Shown one piece after another: positions 732 to 55,897 of a stretch of DNA of 64,000 nucleotides. The notes under the pieces are model-generated. The model was not told the origin of the DNA. It searched no databases and saw only the letters and a program-made list of their open reading frames with translations. Where the stretch lies: NCBI RefSeq assembly GCF_030384885.1, contig NZ_CP128614.1. The stretch is one strand, 5' to 3'. Position 1 is the stretch's first letter. Every line of letters begins with the position of its first letter. This DNA is from Escherichia coli. GTDB lineage: Bacteria; Pseudomonadota; Gammaproteobacteria; Enterobacterales; Enterobacteriaceae. The translations under genes were made by a program, and so were the position numbers.

Positions 732-1763
732 TCAATAGGCGTCGTTCAGCGCAAAGATCGGCTTGCGGGTGCGCCACTGCCCTCGGGTGAAGTCGGGAAA
801 ATCTAACGTGCGATTGCCCTCAGCAATCGATTGTTCCGACAGAGGCGTGATCGCGCTCCAGGCCAGCGCGTCGTAAATGTCGATTGGCATCGGGGCCTTG
901 GCCTTCAGCGCCTCGACAAAAGCGTGGATCACGAACCAGTCCATCCCGCCATGCCCGGCCCCTGCCGCCAGATCGGCGTAGCGTTTCCATAGCGGGTGAT
1001 CGTATTTCGCAAACCAGCCCTCGGCAGGCTCCCAGCGGTGCGGCTGTGGGCTCTTGCCCTCCAGATAGATCGACTTGTTGACGTCCATCCACAGCCCCTC
1101 GGTGCCTTGCACCCGAAAGCCGAGAGAATAGGGGCGCGGCAGCGAGGTGTCGTGGCACAGCATGATCGTTTCACCATTAGTGCAGCCGATCATGGTGTTG
1201 ACCACATCACCCAGTGCGAATTTCACCTCGGCGTTGGGATGATCGGCAGAGCCGTTCTTGACGACATAATCATGCAGCCCGCGCGCCTTACAGCCGAAGC
1301 CGCCAGCGCCCGCTTCGCCCGGCAACGCGACCTTCAGGGTGCGGGTCTGCGGCGGGTAGCACACGCCGGCATCGGCGCAGCCCTGGTACTTCACGGTCAG
1401 GGTGGTCGCGCTCGCGCCGGCCGCGGGCGTGCCGGTGAGGGTGCCGAGCAATTCCTTGCGGTAGGTTTCGACGTCGCCGAAGAATTCGTCGCGGTAGGCC
1501 TTGCCCTTCGGCAGCGCCATGGTCGCGCCGGTGAAGGCGGCATCGGCCTTGACCGAGGTGCGGTGCCGGTACAGGTAATAGCCGTCGGCGATCCGCCAGC
1601 GCACCTCGATGCGGTCCGGCGCGGTGGCCTGCGCGGACAGGACGAAGACCTCGTCGACCGGCGGCAGTTCGAAGTCCTGGGCGACGGCCGAGGTCGCGGG
1701 CAGCGCAAGCAGCAGGGCGAGCCCGGCCAGCCAGCGGCGCAGGCGGATCGTGGATGCGGTCAT
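732..1763 (-). CDS. dsbD: Twin-arginine signal protein with DsbD N-terminal-like domain (the tat/dsbD gene of blaNDM contexts)
   Basis: 343-aa ORF; N-terminus has an RR-containing signal peptide (RLRRWLAGLALLLALPATSAVA); convergent with trpF. Confidence 0.65.
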   Translation of the reverse strand: MTASTIRLRRWLAGLALLLALPATSAVAQDFELPPVDEVFVLSAQATAPDRIEVRWRIADGYYLYRHRTSVKADAAFTGATMALPKGKAYRDEFFGDVETYRKELLGTLTGTPAAGASATTLTVKYQGCADAGVCYPPQTRTLKVALPGEAGAGGFGCKARGLHDYVVKNGSADHPNAEVKFALGDVVNTMIGCTNGETIMLCHDTSLPRPYSLGFRVQGTEGLWMDVNKSIYLEGKSPQPHRWEPAEGWFAKYDHPLWKRYADLAAGAGHGGMDWFVIHAFVEALKAKAPMPIDIYDALAWSAITPLSEQSIAEGNRTLDFPDFTRGQWRTRKPIFALNDAY

Positions 1764-1843: not shown

Positions 1844-3997
1844 GGGTATAGGAAGTATAAACCACCTTTTTGCTCCTCATCCGAAGTATCTTACCTGAAA
1901 TTCCCTCACTCGTTTACCGCTCAAGCCCCAATTTTAACTGCCGGTCCAGCCTAAACCGCTCTAATAAGGTTCGATTTGGCGGTAAAATCTCTAGCCTGAT
2001 AGCTCGAGAGATACAAACTGCCCCACCGCCCCGTTTAAAAGTTGGCAGTGTTGAGCAGTGTTGGATTTGGGGTCGTCAGTCAAAGAGACGACTCTGTGAT
2101 GGATCGAACAGGCTGGGAGTCAGTGGCGGCGCTCGTTCTGGTGGCAGCTCACGCTGCTTGGCGGCATTCGCCTTGGCTGTTTTCTGTTTCAGATGCTTGA
2201 GAATCTGCTCAATGACCTTCGGATCTTCGATGCTGGCAATCACTTTGACGTGACCGCCGCAGTGTTCGCAGACTTCAATATCAATATTGAAGACTCGCTT
2301 GAGGCGTTGCATCCAGGTCATGGCGCGGTGGCGCTCTGCAGGACTCTTGTCACGCCAGTTAGTATCGAGACCTTCCGATTTGTCGGGCTTCTTGCCCCGC
2401 TTGGCGGGTGTTACTTGAACTCGGTGTTTGCTGTTCGGTGCAAAGACGCCGTGGAAGCGTGTGAGGTTGACTCGCGGCTTAGGTACCAACGCAGCGAGTT
2501 TGGCGATGAAGTCCAGCGGCTCGAAGATCACATGGGTGGTGCCATTGCGGTACGGAGTTTTGAGCTCGTAACGCACCTGCCCATTGGCGGTTAATGCCAG
2601 ACGTTTTTCTGAAACCGCTGGCCGACTAATGTAGCGACACAAGCGCTCAAGCTTATCCCGCTGATGCGCTTCGGCCATCACACCGGCGTGTAGCGAGAAA
2701 CCAGCATGGTTGGCTACTCGACTGCTTGAGTCGGCTTTATCCTCACGCCCTGGCAAGGTTTGCAGGGTGAAGACTTTGCGCCCTTGCTGGGGGCCGACGG
2801 CAATGCGATACGTAACCGAAGCACCATGTAATTGAGTCAGCGTATCGTCTTCGCCCTCTTCCAGTGTCAACCACGTATTCTCGGCATCACGCTCCAAAAT
2901 CCCACGCTTTTCCATGCAGCGAGCGATGCGATGGCTGAGGGTGTGAGCGAGCGTATTCAGCTCATCGTAAGTGGGTGCCTTGACACGATGGAAGCGTTGC
3001 TTGCCATAGTCATCTTCGGCATAGACACCATCGAGAAACAGCATGTGGTAGTGGACATTGAGATTTAGCGCGGAGCCAAAGCGTTGGATAAGAGTCACTG
3101 AGCCAGTTTGTGCAGAGGCTTTGGTGTAACCGGCTTTTTTGATCAGATGAGTTGAGAGTGTACGATAGACGATACTCAAGACCTGGCCCATCAGCTGGGG
3201 ATGGCGAGCCAGCAAAAAGCGTAGCTGGAAAGGAAAGCTGAGCACCCACTGGCGAATGGGCTCCTTGGGGAAGACTTCGTCTATCAGCAGCGCCGCACTC
3301 TCGGCCATCCGGCGGGCACCGCAGCTAGGGCAAAAGCCGCGTCGTTTACAGCTGAAGGCGACCAGACGCTCGTGATGACAATCCTCGCAGCGAACCCGCA
3401 TGAAACCATACTCCAGACGGCCACATTGGAGGAGGTCGTTGAATTCTTGTTGGATGTAGCGAGGCAGGTGTTGACCTTGGGCTTCGAGTGAGGCTTTGAA
3501 GGCTGGGTAGTGCTGCTCAACCAGCTGGTAGAGCAGCGTCTGGTCGGGTTGGTGGCGTTCGTAACCGTTTGTTTGAGTGGGCGATTGACTCGCCGTGGCG
3601 TTCCTTGCCAGCGACATGGGTATCCTCCGCTGATACTGTGGTTATGTACAGTATCAGCGGCTTGCGTTCAGACGTCCAGTCTGGCCCTAGACATCGCTAA
3701 ATGCTTAACCCGCAATAGCCCTCACGAGTTGTTATCAGCCACTACCGGTTGAGCGAGAAGGTTTTGGGTTCAGGGTGCTATTGCTCCACCAATCACAATA
3801 CTGAAGCCCCAACTGTTATCAGTTGGGGCTTTTTCTTGTCTGTTTGCGGCGGTTGCGTTTTATCGGTAGTCGTCGAGCTCTGCACCATCCCACATAAGAG
3901 CTTAACGGTGCGATCTTCAACGCCATCACACAAAACTTTCTTTTTCACGCACAGTCAACTTATTGGATGTTTTATTAACAACCCAAAAGGAGATATT
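1844..3997 (-). mobile_element. ISCR1: ISCR1 (IS91-like rolling-circle element); boundaries approximate
   Basis: Contains the 513-aa orf513 transposase; oriIS-like end (GGTTTATACTTCCTATACCC on the element strand) near 1844; placed immediately downstream of sul1 as in complex class 1 integrons. Confidence 0.8.
2076..3617 (-). CDS. ISCR1 transposase (orf513)
   Basis: 513-aa ORF beginning MSLARNATASQSPTQTNGYERHQPDQ…, matching the ISCR1 Orf513 protein as recalled. Confidence 0.93.
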   Translation of the reverse strand: MSLARNATASQSPTQTNGYERHQPDQTLLYQLVEQHYPAFKASLEAQGQHLPRYIQQEFNDLLQCGRLEYGFMRVRCEDCHHERLVAFSCKRRGFCPSCGARRMAESAALLIDEVFPKEPIRQWVLSFPFQLRFLLARHPQLMGQVLSIVYRTLSTHLIKKAGYTKASAQTGSVTLIQRFGSALNLNVHYHMLFLDGVYAEDDYGKQRFHRVKAPTYDELNTLAHTLSHRIARCMEKRGILERDAENTWLTLEEGEDDTLTQLHGASVTYRIAVGPQQGRKVFTLQTLPGREDKADSSSRVANHAGFSLHAGVMAEAHQRDKLERLCRYISRPAVSEKRLALTANGQVRYELKTPYRNGTTHVIFEPLDFIAKLAALVPKPRVNLTRFHGVFAPNSKHRVQVTPAKRGKKPDKSEGLDTNWRDKSPAERHRAMTWMQRLKRVFNIDIEVCEHCGGHVKVIASIEDPKVIEQILKHLKQKTAKANAAKQRELPPERAPPLTPSLFDPSQSRLFD

Positions 3998-6564: not shown

Positions 6565-7062
6565 TTAGCCGTTTCGACGCGCATAAACGGAGTGGGTGTA
6601 CGGAATTACAGCTTGAATGGTTTCGGTTGAGACAAGCTCGAATTCTGTTTCGTTGAGCATTGGGAAGAAGGCGTCACCCTCGAAGGTTTGATGTACCTCA
6701 GATAGAAACACGCCGTGGGCGTGAGGTAGTGCCAGAGTGTATATCTCAGCTCCGCCCGCGACGTAGAGTTCATTGCCGAGTTCGGATGCCAAAGCGATAG
6801 CGTGCGACAGCGTTGAAACAACTACGCAGCCAGTGGCGCGGTAGTTAGCTTGGCGTGAGATTACCAATGTGTGACGGTTCGGTAGAGGCTTGCCGATAGA
6901 CTCAAAGGTCTTTCGCCCCATGACAACGACTTTTCCCTCAGTGAGTCTGCGAAAAATCTTCTGCTCACCCGGAATTTTCCAGGGGATATTAGGACCATTG
7001 CCAATAACCCGATTGGCTCCCATCGCAGCAACGAGATAAATGCGTACTGATTCCGAGTTCAT
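6565..7062 (-). CDS. dfrA12: Trimethoprim-resistant dihydrofolate reductase DfrA12
   Basis: 165-aa ORF MNSESVRIYLVAAMGANRVIGNGPNIPWKIPGEQKIFRRLTEGKVVVMGRKTF…, recognised as DfrA12. Confidence 0.92.
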   Translation of the reverse strand: MNSESVRIYLVAAMGANRVIGNGPNIPWKIPGEQKIFRRLTEGKVVVMGRKTFESIGKPLPNRHTLVISRQANYRATGCVVVSTLSHAIALASELGNELYVAGGAEIYTLALPHAHGVFLSEVHQTFEGDAFFPMLNETEFELVSTETIQAVIPYTHSVYARRNG

Positions 7063-7063
7063 A

Positions 7064-7135
7064 TGGCTAACTTTGTTTTAGGGCGACTGCCCTGCTGCGT
7101 AACATCGTTGCTGCTCCATAACATCAAACATCGAC
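7064..7135 (-). other. attI1 recombination site / first-cassette boundary (approximate)
   Basis: …CTAAAACAAAGTTAGCC followed by the dfrA12 ATG on the cassette strand, between Pc/intI1 and the first cassette. Confidence 0.5.
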
Positions 7136-51573: not shown

Positions 51574-51876
51574 TCAGCCAGGCCCGGATATAAATACATG
51601 CTCTGCCAGGTGAGTACCACTGCCCGGTAGCCGAATGATAAGTTTTGATTTCACGGTTGCAATTTCTCCCTCTGGCATCACTGCTCCACGATGCACCCCG
51701 ATCAGCTTAGCGTCTGAAAATGAAGATGCACCGGACCTGCATGAAGCGGAACGGTGCCCAGCTGAGTGTTTGTGGGCACAATGAACCGCAATTTCATGAT
51801 GGGAATGAAAGATGGCTGGTGGCCCGCTGATATGAACGCTTACCCTGCATAACGTTACTAACCACAATCTTTTCAC
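51574..51876 (-). CDS. Hypothetical protein (His/Cys-rich)
   Basis: 100-aa ORF. Confidence 0.3.
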   Translation of the reverse strand: MKRLWLVTLCRVSVHISGPPAIFHSHHEIAVHCAHKHSAGHRSASCRSGASSFSDAKLIGVHRGAVMPEGEIATVKSKLIIRLPGSGTHLAEHVFISGPG

Positions 51877-51888
51877 TAAAAGAAAAAA

Positions 51889-51917
51889 GGGTTCCTCCGC
51901 TTTAGAGGAACCCTTTC
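51889..51917 (-). terminator. Terminator-like hairpin
   Basis: GGGTTCCTC-N7-GAGGAACCC flanked by A/T runs. Confidence 0.45.
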
Positions 51918-51970
51918 AAAAGGTGCCGATGGCATACTAATCCACACCCTGAAAAGAGGGGGGTTGCCCC

Positions 51971-53309
51971 CATAAGCGCTAACTTAAGGGTTGAACCATC
52001 TGAAGAATGCGACGCCTCGGTGCCTCGTTAAGACGATGCCTCGCGTTCTTCAATTGCGTTTTGTAGGCTGTCAGGGATACTGTCCCACGAATGGCCACCT
52101 GTAAGCTCCAGATGACCATTTTTGTTATTCTCCACAACGAGTTAGTTCTTCTTTTCGGATCCGGCACTTCTGGGGGGGAAATCCAGCGATGGCTGGATTA
52201 TGTCGTCAATTAAAAATGCGGCGAGTAGATTAGCAAATATCCACGCTTTCGCGAGTTCAGGTTCCTTTGCACGCAAAGCATCCAGGTGCAGCAAACTTTT
52301 GAGCCGCTTAAAAGCCAGTTCAATTTGCCATCGCAGACGGTAACAATCAGCCACTTGCTCTGCTGAATATTCATCTTCCGGTAATGATGTTAGCAATAGC
52401 ACATGGCCCGCTGCTTCCAGCGTTTCCGCCTGAACTACTCGTCCTTTTCGACGATTCTCGCTGAGCAGTCGGGTTTTACTGATTAATGCTTTTTCGGGAG
52501 GAAGTGATACGGCAATGAGACGTGCCGGAAAGGGAGCTCCGGCTTTTTTATTACCTGAATTGCCTATCATTACAGTGGTTTCACCGTTCTTACCGCAATC
52601 CAGCCCGCGCAGAAAACCCATCATGTCAAAGCGCATTCCTTCTGCAGTTAACCAGCGCAATCCTCGCCAGTGAACCCGGACGATATAATCAGCTTCTCCA
52701 AAAGCAAGTGAGCGGATACATTCGGGACGCGAACCGAATCCCCGGTCAGCAATGCGTATCTCGTCTGCCGTTTGCGCAAATCGGTCCAGCCGTTCAGCGT
52801 CTCTGCTGTCGGTTAGCTCAAAATCAGTGAACTGACAGGTATGAGGATCATATCCCATATGTAGTCGCCATTCAGCGCTGCCGCCCCCGGGCGCACTGAT
52901 TGCTGTTCCATCGACAAGACGCAATCTCTTTCCGCTTGTACAACCCGTAACTGCGGCGCGTACAGCAAGTGTTTGTGCGGCAAGTATGCCAAACCAGTCG
53001 GCGGCATTCCGCAGCCGCTTCAGGAGAGCCACGTCAGATAATGTTGCAACGTCATGGAGCTGAGCCCATGCAGTGACTTCACGTAATGACATCCCCCCGG
53101 GGCCGTAAGCCAGCCCCAGACGTAGCAGAGTTGCAGCATCACGAATTTCGCGGCGGCGGGTTAGAGCCCCGGCATTACGTGCCGAAGTATCCAGTTCTTC
53201 GGGCTTACCAATATGGGCCAGAATTGCTGACCAGTTATCGTGAGAGTAATTCATCGGCACGTTAAATCATATCAGGCGTAATACCACAACCCTTAAGTTA
53301 GCGCTTATG
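51971..53309 (-). mobile_element. IS186: IS186 (IS4 family) with 11-bp target-site duplication GGGGTTGCCCC
   Basis: 23-bp terminal inverted repeats CATAAGCGCTAACTTAAGGGTTG at both ends; direct repeats GGGGTTGCCCC at 51960-51970 and 53310-53320. Confidence 0.9.
52142..53254 (-). CDS. IS186 transposase
   Basis: Translation MNYSHDNWSAILAHIGKPEELDTSARNAGALTRRREIRD… matching IS186 transposase as recalled. Confidence 0.9.
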   Translation of the reverse strand: MNYSHDNWSAILAHIGKPEELDTSARNAGALTRRREIRDAATLLRLGLAYGPGGMSLREVTAWAQLHDVATLSDVALLKRLRNAADWFGILAAQTLAVRAAVTGCTSGKRLRLVDGTAISAPGGGSAEWRLHMGYDPHTCQFTDFELTDSRDAERLDRFAQTADEIRIADRGFGSRPECIRSLAFGEADYIVRVHWRGLRWLTAEGMRFDMMGFLRGLDCGKNGETTVMIGNSGNKKAGAPFPARLIAVSLPPEKALISKTRLLSENRRKGRVVQAETLEAAGHVLLLTSLPEDEYSAEQVADCYRLRWQIELAFKRLKSLLHLDALRAKEPELAKAWIFANLLAAFLIDDIIQPSLDFPPRSAGSEKKN

Positions 53310-53332
53310 GGGGTTGCCCCCCTCTTTGTCAG

Positions 53333-53548
53333 CTACTTACCGGATTCGTAGGCCAGGATAGCAAATACCTCCCTTGTTCCGTCTTTCATCCGCAACTCGC
53401 AAAGCGAGTTTCGTGTGAGCCAGGTGAATATCAACAGCGTTAAACAAACTATTAATATGCACAAAACAATGGGTTGGTTCGGCATTTTCATGGCCTTCTT
53501 CTCCTTGCATTTAAGCAGGCAAGAGGCTACGCTGTGTGTGACTAGCAT
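53333..53548 (-). CDS. Small membrane protein between IS186 and IS150
   Basis: 71-aa hydrophobic ORF; its terminator hairpin is the IS186 target. Confidence 0.3.
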
Positions 53549-53589
53549 ACAGGGGCCTCGGGTTGTACTGACCCCAGAAAGTTGGACAG

Positions 53590-54441
53590 TTAAACACGAG
53601 GCATATAGGTCTGATTCCGATATTCAATTGGAGTCAGACCTTTTAATTTCAGGCTAATTCTTCTGCTGTTGTAGTATTCAATATATTCCGTAACAGCATC
53701 CTTCAGCTCGCTTATATTACTGAACTCATCAAGATAAAAACACTCCGACTTTAAGGTTCCAAAGAAACACTCCACCACAGCATTATCCAGACAATTGCCT
53801 TTTCTGGACATGCTTTGTTTAATACCATGTTCTTTAAGGATATTTTGATATCTTCTCATACGATACTGCCATCCCTGGTCAGAGTGCAGAACAGGATGCT
53901 CGTGAGGATTAAGCTTTTTGAATGCCTGATCGAGCATATTCTCGACCATGTTCATCACTGGTCTTTCCGAAAGGCTGTAAGAAATAACTTCGTTGTTGAA
54001 GAGATCTATTACTGGAGACAAATACAGCTTGCGCCCATTGACTGCAAATTCAGTAACATCGGTAACCCACTTCTCGTTTGGCCGCGTAGCCTTGAAATCT
54101 CTTTGGAGAACATTGGGGGCGGTTTGCCCTACCTCTCCTCTGTAAGAGCGGTATCGCTTGACCTTAATCGCTGCCTTCAGTGAGAGGATTCCCATCAGGC
54201 GCTGAACAGCTTTATGGTTAATCTGTTTCCCTTCTCGATGAAGAGACAGCGTTACCCTACGGTATCCGTATCGGCCTCTATTCTCATGATAAATCTCACC
54301 AATACGCTTTTTAACGTCCGCATACTTGTCAGGCTTGCTGAGAGCCTTTAGATGGTAATAAAACGTACTGCGCGGTATCTCCGCAGCCCTGAGAAGCTCA
54401 TCAAGAGGATAAAACTGCCTTAGCTCGTTGAGTACTTTCAC
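53590..54441 (-). CDS. insK: IS150 OrfB (InsK-like DDE integrase domain; OrfAB made by -1 frameshift)
   Basis: 283-aa ORF overlapping orfA by 4 bp in the -1 frame. Confidence 0.9.
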
Positions 54442-54959
54442 TTTTTCGTGGGATGAGCTAAGGCTTTCAGCTTTTTTAGATACACAAGCCGCGTTTCAAG
54501 AAATCGAACTTGCCTTTCAAGATCCTCAATGCGTCGGTCTTTTGACAGCTCCAATGCTGATGCCGCTTTTTCTGGATCAACTGATATTGCAATGTTTCTT
54601 TTGGTGCCAATCTTGAGCGCGCGTAAACCAGCTTCTCCGCGCTCTTCATAAACCTTCAGCCACCTGGCTACAGAACCACTACCAGCAAGCATAAAGTGAG
54701 CAGCAGCCTGATTAAGGGACATGTGCTGCTCGATCACCGCTTTCACGACCTTAATACGCAACTCAGGATCAGCACTAACACCTTTAGGTTTGGGAATTAA
54801 ACCTTTTTCTCCATGTTTTTCATAGAGGGCAACCCATGTCCTGACCTGGGTTCGGGGGACACCAAAACGTGCCGAGATGATCCTGTAACCATCATCAGTA
54901 GTGAAGTAGTGATTCACGACTTCAAGGCGCTTTTCAAAAGGGTATTTTGGCTTTGACAT
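54438..54959 (-). CDS. insJ: IS150 OrfA (InsJ-like, HTH)
   Basis: 173-aa ORF MSKPKYPFEKRLEVVNHYFTTDDGYRIISARFGVPRTQVRTWVALYEKHG…. Confidence 0.9.
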   Translation of the reverse strand: MSKPKYPFEKRLEVVNHYFTTDDGYRIISARFGVPRTQVRTWVALYEKHGEKGLIPKPKGVSADPELRIKVVKAVIEQHMSLNQAAAHFMLAGSGSVARWLKVYEERGEAGLRALKIGTKRNIAISVDPEKAASALELSKDRRIEDLERQVRFLETRLVYLKKLKALAHPTKK

Positions 54960-55291
54960 ATCAGGGGCTATTCCATTTCATCGTCCAACAAAATGGGTGC
55001 AGTACAGGTTAATTGAAAAATTACTCGGGGCTTTCTGCTTTTACCACAGTCAAACAGTGTTACCGCTGGCTGGGGCAAAAGCCTCCAGCACCAGCGTCAT
55101 TATATCACTCTGCCCTGATCAGCCAAACACCCTGCCTGCATAAATCATTGATTTATAATTTATTTGACATGAGTCACTTCCGGTTGTCGGAGACAGTCTT
55201 TTTACACTAAAGAAAAGGGTAACGGGCAGCTGCTTGGTCGGAACATACAGTGCAGTTCCTGCCCGTTTAATTTCCGGATGCAATGGTAGGA

Positions 55292-55897
55292 TCAGGAGGC
55301 ACTGGTTCCGTTGATTAGGGAAAGCTTATGTGCCTGAATACGGCTGTATTCGAGATGGGATGGAATATTACAGATGCGCTCCAGTCGATCATGCAGCCTC
55401 GTGTAGGTCAGTCGATGAATACCGGACATTTCATCAAGTAGCCAGCGCTTGATGTAAGGGTTACAGGAAAGCCGGGCAAGATCGTCGTCATCCACTTCGT
55501 CAAAGAACCAGTACTGCTCCATCGGGACTACCTGAAATATCCACGGCCGGGGATAGTCCCCTGTGACAACCAAAAACCATGCGAGAAAGCATAGACACAG
55601 CTCAACGATCATCAGCATCGAAAATTGCGAATAACTTAGACCAGGCACATAGGGTGAACTATCCGCAACATACCCCCTGAACAATTCCGCCACAAGGTAG
55701 CCCAATAGCGACAAGGCCAGCATCAGGGTCAGGATTAATCCCCCATTAAACGCTACCGAAGCCTTTTGAACCCGATCAGGTGCTGTCCGGCTGCGATAGT
55801 TGGTCACTACTCTTTCTACAAGTGCCCTTATGGCAGCCTGTTCTTTACTGACATCAGCTCCGGAAAAACCGGACGGGCTTTTATTTAATTCAGTCAT
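55292..55897 (-). CDS. Hypothetical membrane protein
   Basis: 201-aa ORF with two or more hydrophobic helices. Confidence 0.45.
   Translation of the reverse strand: MTELNKSPSGFSGADVSKEQAAIRALVERVVTNYRSRTAPDRVQKASVAFNGGLILTLMLALSLLGYLVAELFRGYVADSSPYVPGLSYSQFSMLMIVELCLCFLAWFLVVTGDYPRPWIFQVVPMEQYWFFDEVDDDDLARLSCNPYIKRWLLDEMSGIHRLTYTRLHDRLERICNIPSHLEYSRIQAHKLSLINGTSAS

Follow-up and report, generated by a model that had tools for sequence, protein, structure and literature searches.

Insertions of IS186 and IS150 in the hok/sok toxin–antitoxin module of an IncHI2 plasmid of Escherichia coli

Inactivation of hok genes by insertion sequences (ISs) has been published before. On the chromosome of Escherichia coli K-12 the hokA, hokC and hokE loci are inactivated by IS150 or IS186, according to PMC7232551, which credits the finding to Pedersen and Gerdes (1999). 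In a large survey of mobile-element insertions, hot spots in E. coli and Klebsiella pneumoniae were seen to have hok/sok homologs close by, and it was proposed that disruption of these homologs is adaptive (Durrant et al., bioRxiv 10.1101/527788). The promoter of lon is also a well-known hot spot for IS186 (bioRxiv 10.1101/527788). Where papers on IncHI2 plasmids list what differs from one plasmid to another, IS186B and IS150 are named but not tied to hok, and a recent preprint on Hok diversity makes no mention of IS186, IS150 or IncHI2. Here we describe a hok/sok locus of an IncHI2 plasmid which carries both elements. It lies in a 64,000-nt stretch of contig NZ_CP128614.1 (E. coli assembly GCF_030384885.1), referred to below as the window, and all positions are those of the window unless another sequence is named. 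The locus is a well-resolved further example of IS inactivation of hok, and involves no new element or mechanism.

In its backbone the window agrees with large conjugative plasmids of type IncHI2A/MOBH; 992 plasmid records, of Escherichia, Salmonella, Enterobacter and Klebsiella, match the 2.95-kb left flank. We put at roughly 85% the probability that the region of 53333..53548 is the type I toxin–antitoxin (post-segregational killing) module hok/sok of this backbone, broken by two independent transpositions into hot spots; what was shown is its anatomy and homology, the presence of exact empty sites and recurrence at the two sites. The toxin gene is identified by its protein domain (Table 1), and in related plasmids RefSeq labels it as "type I toxin-antitoxin system Hok family toxin". 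The overlapping mok frame shares its stop codon with hok, as is the case for the annotated mokC and hokC of K-12. The leader of the intact allele scores 81.1 bits against the Rfam model RF01794 (sok/hok leader; gathering cut-off 59), which takes in the leader of the hok mRNA, from the 5′ end as far as the hok AUG, and the hok promoter lies directly upstream of the first position of this model. In the window the match is split by IS150 into two parts, 54930..55093 (46.7 bits) and 53489..53643 (34.4 bits), both of which are below the threshold. The ancestral locus was therefore a member of this family, and the present one is a disrupted member.

The first insertion is an IS186 which is identical to IS186A of K-12 MG1655 at 1339/1339 positions, and its length, inverted repeats, single transposase and target duplication are those of this member of the IS4 family. 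It is flanked by two copies of the G+C-rich target duplication GGGGTTGCCCC, at 51960..51970 and 53310..53320. As the element begins with C and ends with G, the duplication can be read as 11 bp, or as 13 bp if the terminal C/G is given to the target. Removal of IS186 together with one copy of the duplication restores AAAGAGGGGGG-TTG-CCCCCCTCTTT, a perfect stem of 11 bp closed by a loop of 3 nt, referred to below as hairpin 1 (-19.0 kcal/mol for the 25-mer). Hairpin 1 has the form G6-TTG-C6 and starts 9 nt past the hok stop codon. IS186 sits in its loop, and a residual 5-bp G/C hairpin is left at each IS186 junction. An earlier reading made from the letters of the window (the sequence-only reading) had proposed an IS186 inserted in a GC-rich hairpin, with an 11-bp duplication and a perfect stem-loop on removal of the element, and all of this was borne out.

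SaiSree et al. reportedly described, in 2001, an IS186 target consensus of G-runs, a short spacer and C-runs. By its letters the GGGGTTGCCCC site conforms to this pattern, as do the sites of the K-12 copies. The motif GGGG-N3-6-CCCC occurs at only two distinct sites in the window, one of which holds IS186. The sole other site, GGGGATAGTCCCC at 55549..55561, has no IS186 in it here. IS186 is carried by 2220 of 5426 complete E. coli genomes, which makes the earlier suggestion that the plasmid has resided in E. coli plausible, though no more than that. Salmonella, Klebsiella and E. fergusonii, too, hold plasmids in which the two insertions occur together.

The second insertion is an IS150 with the length, inverted repeats, 3-bp duplication, two open reading frames (ORFs) and frameshift motif expected of this member of the IS3 family. 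The sequence-only reading had correctly placed it 243 bp from the IS186 duplication, flanked by a GGT duplication (53561..53563 and 55007..55009), and had treated it as a neighbour of IS186. It instead lies inside the same module, within the DNA of the sok stem-loop, which is also DNA of the hok leader, so that it splits sok and cuts the hok promoter and leader from mok/hok. One end of IS150 sits 4 nt upstream of the mok ribosome-binding site (RBS) GAGG. By alignment to K-12 sokC, the hok side of the element keeps the sok promoter and some 24 nt of Sok; the rest of Sok and the hok promoter and leader (55010..55126) lie on its far side, where the hok promoter now aims into IS150, in the sense direction of the transposase genes.

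Table 1. Positions of the module, its RNA elements and the two insertion sequences in the window
Feature	Position	Strand	Details
Likely intrinsic terminator at the end of full-length hok mRNA	51885..51917	-	14-bp stem, U-run to about 51875; terminator scan and fold
fbi-like fold-back element CCAUCGGCACC	51922..51932	-	Complementary to the 5′ end of hok mRNA
3′ arm and loop of hairpin 1	51953..51970	-	Includes left duplication copy (51960..51970)
IS186	51971..53309	-	1339 bp; 23-bp perfect terminal inverted repeats (CATAAGCGCTAACTTAAGGGTTG), 23/23
insL (IS186 DDE transposase)	52142..53254	-	370 aa, intact; same strand as hok; Pfam DDE_Tnp_1 E = 1.6e-26
Right duplication copy and rest of hairpin 1 5′ arm	53310..53327	-	Duplication copy at 53310..53320
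hok toxin gene	53333..53491	-	52 aa, intact; Pfam HOK_GEF (PF01848) E = 6.4e-18, above curated cut-off; translation checked
mok reading frame	53333..53548	-	71 codons; in-frame upstream start, overlaps hok; RBS GAGG at 53556..53559
sok promoter	53505..53533	+	-35 TTGCAT 53505..53510, 17-nt spacer, -10 TACGCT 53528..53533
First ~24 nt of Sok RNA	53540..53563	+	Putative start, by alignment to annotated K-12 sokC
IS150	53564..55006	-	1443 bp; imperfect inverted repeats starting TGTACTG; 99% identical to K-12 IS150
insB (IS150)	53590..54441	-	Pfam rve (integrase) match; intact, overlaps insA
insA (IS150)	54438..54959	-	Pfam HTH_28 match; intact
A6G frameshift motif AAAAAAG	54471..54477		Within IS150
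sok 3′ part (remaining stem-loop, U-rich end)	55010..55042	+	Alignment to K-12 sokC; covered by RF01794 half-match
hok mRNA 5′ leader (tac and upstream stem-loops)	55010..55092	-	RF01794 half-match; cut from mok/hok by IS150
hok promoter	55099..55126	-	TTGGCT, 16 nt, TG-TATAAT; 10/12 matches plus extended -10 (promoter scan, intact allele)

RefSeq, through the Prokaryotic Genome Annotation Pipeline (PGAP), calls Hok as a coding sequence of 39 aa (1613..1732 of the intact allele, locus L001, equivalent to 53333..53452 of the window), versus the start at 53491 and the 52 aa which homology and the Rfam model give. In these plasmid records sok, mok and the RNA elements are unannotated, and interrupted loci still carry the Hok family toxin label. 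A scan of the region against Rfam returned nothing else credible; a match to mir-15 inside IS150 was rejected as chance (E = 0.28). Elsewhere in the window, 7039..7117 (minus strand) matches the Rfam AAC_AAD_leader/attI family at 71 bits, above the gathering score, which points to a class 1 integron cassette region.

The sequence-only reading had proposed comparison with related plasmids lacking the insertions, and the predicted empty sites are found in them. The 1105-nt reconstruction from which both ISs have been removed is present exactly in plasmid NZ_CP022165.1. Probes of 200 bp across the empty sites match the listed records at 100% identity, and at ≥80% coverage they match 804 plasmid records for the IS186 site and 585 for the IS150 site. 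IS186 is found in the orientation of the window in 154 plasmid records. A synthetic probe for the reverse orientation of IS186, keeping the site and its duplication, is matched over ≥80% of its length by 117 plasmid records (100% identity in the listed ones), and this arrangement was confirmed at base level in pEGY1-MCR-1. Either orientation occurs with and without IS150 (e.g. CP019647.1, CP023143.1, CP026933.2), indicating several independent IS186 insertions, or recombination.

All four allelic states occur, namely neither insertion, IS186 only, IS150 only and both. NZ_CP022165.1 represents the first, CP026933.2 and, with IS186 reversed, pEGY1-MCR-1 the second, LT795115.1 the third and the window the last. 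A 120-bp probe for the IS150 junction matched 872 records, too many for IncHI2 alone, the excess being other hok loci with IS150 at the same position. Cleaner counts came from composite probes of 543 bp, which assigned 387 plasmid records to IS150 only and 400 to neither insertion, diverged lineages included in the latter; a composite probe for both insertions (IS186 in the window orientation) matched 57 plasmid records. Hairpin 1 and the sok site are both insertion hot spots. An assembly artefact was rejected in view of the at least 57 independent plasmid records with the identical double insertion. In the diverged IncHI2 lineage represented by Enterobacter hormaechei NZ_CP047730.1 (about 1270..1300 of locus L008), hairpin 1 has six G and five C (GGGGGGCAA-CCCCC), and other records of this lineage have ISKpn8 at the sok site (e.g. 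NZ_LC589173.1).

Recurrence of this kind could be driven mainly by selection for the loss of hok/sok, for example through lower plasmid cost or toxicity in new hosts, and not by target preference alone. This is possible, although we consider it the less probable account of the pattern. In many IncHI2 plasmids it is this one module that has taken up IS150, IS186 or both, a like pattern is seen at the chromosomal hok loci of K-12 and on IncF plasmids, and adaptive disruption has been proposed by Durrant et al. (bioRxiv 10.1101/527788). However, IS186 is strongly site-specific, and in 61 kb just two sites match, the hairpin being one of them, so that mutational bias alone predicts recurrence, and the intact allele persists in hundreds of plasmids.

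The role of hairpin 1 is best seen in the 3′ architecture of the intact hok mRNA. The reconstructed mRNA of 414 nt was folded without constraints, and in its minimum free energy structure nt 1-10 pair with nt 366-375 (fbi), hairpin 1 forms at nt 320-344 and a 14-bp terminator at nt 380-412. When the RNA is cut after hairpin 1, the same folding analysis predicts that the 5′ end refolds locally. The hok mRNA of plasmid R1 switches between full-length and processed forms (PMC9841398), and the predicted folds reproduce this published switch. Aligned base by base, the reconstructed locus and an R1-type hok locus run alike from the stop codon through hairpin 1, UUUUCAGG, a spacer and fbi to the terminator hairpin with its U-run. 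The tac/fbi pairing covaries, with GGCGCUU/AAGCGCC in R1 and GGUGCUG/CGGCACC at this locus. In the Enterobacter IncHI2 lineage there is a compensatory C-G to U-A change in the terminator stem, and homology to this lineage stops just past the hok terminator. The pairing of the 5′ and 3′ ends (tac/fbi) and the 3′ terminal stem-loop, the marks of membership among hok mRNAs, are both present here as computational predictions.

In the 3′ untranslated region of R1 hok, 19 of 22 loss-of-function substitutions break a C-G pair of hairpin 1, whereupon processed hok mRNA vanishes, a loss which has been ascribed to 3′-to-5′ exonucleases (PMC9841398). Because R1 stem mutants lose the processed mRNA, IS186 would here have struck the 3′ cap that shields the active toxin mRNA. 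By this analogy hairpin 1 is the counterpart of the 3′ stem which protects processed R1 mRNA, and not the final terminator.

The sequence-only reading had instead made the hairpin the terminator of a small gene, and had suggested altered read-through into an ORF at 51574..51876. It is very unlikely that hairpin 1 is an ordinary Rho-independent terminator of an anonymous gene, and that the main effect of IS186 is to abolish termination and allow such read-through. Hairpin 1 is G+C-rich, is followed by UCUUUU and was flagged by the terminator scan, and its arms are now 1.35 kb apart. The gene is mok/hok by both Pfam and Rfam, however, and a stronger 14-bp terminator with a U-run, which would end the transcript, stands 35 nt beyond hairpin 1 and ahead of the ORF. 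Any read-through past hok now meets IS186 first. The ORF itself (minus strand, 100 codons, GTG start) has no Pfam match and is unannotated in two inspected records of the same lineage, no large-database protein search having been made, and the sister IncHI2 lineage does not share its region. It was rejected as a real downstream gene on these grounds and is probably not a gene, and read-through into it is unlikely to matter.

For the broken hok/sok module, the anatomy points to the following consequences. IS186 in the loop of hairpin 1 leaves hok with a 5-bp remnant of the stem, and puts the other hairpin arm, fbi and the likely true terminator 1.35 kb from hok. IS150 cuts the antitoxin RNA Sok in two past about nt 24, and detaches the hok promoter, tac and the upstream structures from mok/hok. 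From the positions of the two elements it would follow that the toxin transcript and the antitoxin RNA are both split. The net result, judged from this anatomy and with the hok and mok frames intact, is likely to be the loss of regulated toxin expression and of the plasmid-addiction function.

Several points weigh against this account. We infer the loss of function and the fates of the transcripts from the DNA sequence. Both hok and mok are intact, and a 5-bp G/C hairpin still stands right after hok. As insAB of IS150, mok/hok and insL of IS186 are all on the minus strand, read-through from IS150 into mok/hok is conceivable, and the retained Sok promoter with its ~24 nt might yield a chimeric antisense RNA. 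The target consensus used for IS186 is the one reportedly given by SaiSree et al. (2001). The record counts are approximate, as they depend on coverage thresholds for BLAST probes and include some diverged or non-IncHI2 loci.

That the module is rewired and not dead, with the hok promoter and the IS150 genes transcribing a leader-less mok/hok, and a chimeric Sok/IS150 RNA or an unstable transcript limiting toxicity so that some toxin function is kept, is very unlikely: the hok promoter, insA/insB, mok/hok and insL do share the minus strand, and the mok RBS, mok, hok, the Sok promoter and the 5′ recognition segment of Sok are all retained, but the stabilising 3′ stem retains just 5 bp, with fbi lost, in R1 toxicity is abolished when this stem is weakened at even one base (PMC9841398), and unregulated Hok would kill, yet the arrangement is stably kept by 57 or more sequenced plasmids from hosts of several species.

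The disrupted module bears on how plasmid stability is judged from sequence. IncHI2 plasmids are major carriers of mcr-1, extended-spectrum beta-lactamase and heavy-metal resistance genes, and their persistence is partly due to addiction modules. In several hundred plasmid records IS150, IS186 or both break up the hok/sok module described here. Since interrupted modules are still labelled as an intact "Hok family toxin", counts of toxin–antitoxin genes overstate the functional stability systems on IncHI2 plasmids, and the annotated Hok toxins of many IncHI2 and IncF plasmids reside in modules broken by an IS. The locus moreover offers a clean illustration from nature of the structure-like target preference of IS186, with one hairpin struck in both orientations. 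A far broader proposition is that hok/sok modules hold a pair of conserved DNA motifs which encode structure, namely the 3′ hairpin with its G and C runs and, by the mok RBS, the stem-loop of sok, which act as dedicated landing pads for IS186 and IS150-like elements respectively, and that insertion there is the dominant and selectively favoured route by which plasmids and chromosomes lose hok/sok addiction across Enterobacteriaceae, affecting well over 1000 sequenced plasmids; this we regard as doubtful.

Among known systems, the hok/sok (parB) locus of R1 and IncF plasmids has in common with the IncHI2 locus its order of promoter, tac, mok, hok, hairpin 1, fbi and terminator, with antisense sok, and R1-type DNA is about 82% identical to it in aligned stretches. 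Hairpin 1 of R1 (GGCGGGC...GCCCGCC) is without a run of four or more G or C, and is therefore not an expected target of IS186. R1-type loci do carry IS150: in the IncF record NZ_CP074034.1 (2388..2547 and 3890..3930 of locus L006) an R1-type hok carries IS150 in the same orientation, 0-3 nt from the aligned IncHI2 position. Its duplication is TGG, not GGT, which makes it an independent event. Junctions of the hok leader with IS150, or with the IS150-like ISKpn8, are found in at least 1254 plasmid records (R1-type loci, on IncF and other plasmids), a count which is a lower bound and mixes locus types.

The lon promoter resembles the IncHI2 hairpin in its repeated, site-specific insertion of IS186, in either orientation, at a short G-run, spacer and C-run. 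In the lon case a promoter is struck and a protease phenotype altered, whereas in the IncHI2 case the target is an RNA-structure hairpin of a toxin–antitoxin module.

The closest parallels are the chromosomal loci of K-12, and the IncHI2 locus extends to plasmids the IS-mediated inactivation of hok first known from them. At hokA, IS150 splits mokA and sokA, which are pseudogenes, and lies between the hok promoter and the hok frame, as it does here. It sits about 20 nt past the conserved AGCCCC motif, on the promoter side, which is comparable to the position at the IncHI2 locus. The K-12 copy differs in its orientation, opposite to that of the IncHI2 copy, and in being without a matching 3-bp duplication, where the IncHI2 copy has a clean GGT. 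In MG1655 (1120..1140 and 2570..2600 of locus L004) the element is flanked by GTA on one side and AAC on the other, and the hokA-proximal leader looks about 40 nt shorter than those of other hok loci. The lack of a duplication together with the short leader suggests an adjacent deletion, and deletions associated with IS150 which lack target duplications have been reported (PMC11708052).

At hokC of K-12, IS186A lies in the loop of GGCGGGGA-TCAC-TCCCCGCC, 19 bp after the gene, and at hokE, IS186B lies in the loop of TGCGGGGA-GTAA-TCCCCGCA, 18 bp after it. At the IncHI2 locus the distance from hok is 22 bp, and in all three cases a duplication of 10-13 bp spans the loop. Unlike the K-12 loci, the IncHI2 locus is on a conjugative plasmid and not the chromosome, encodes a different member of the Hok family and offers a G6-N3-C6 target, and across plasmids its hairpin is occupied by IS186 in both orientations.

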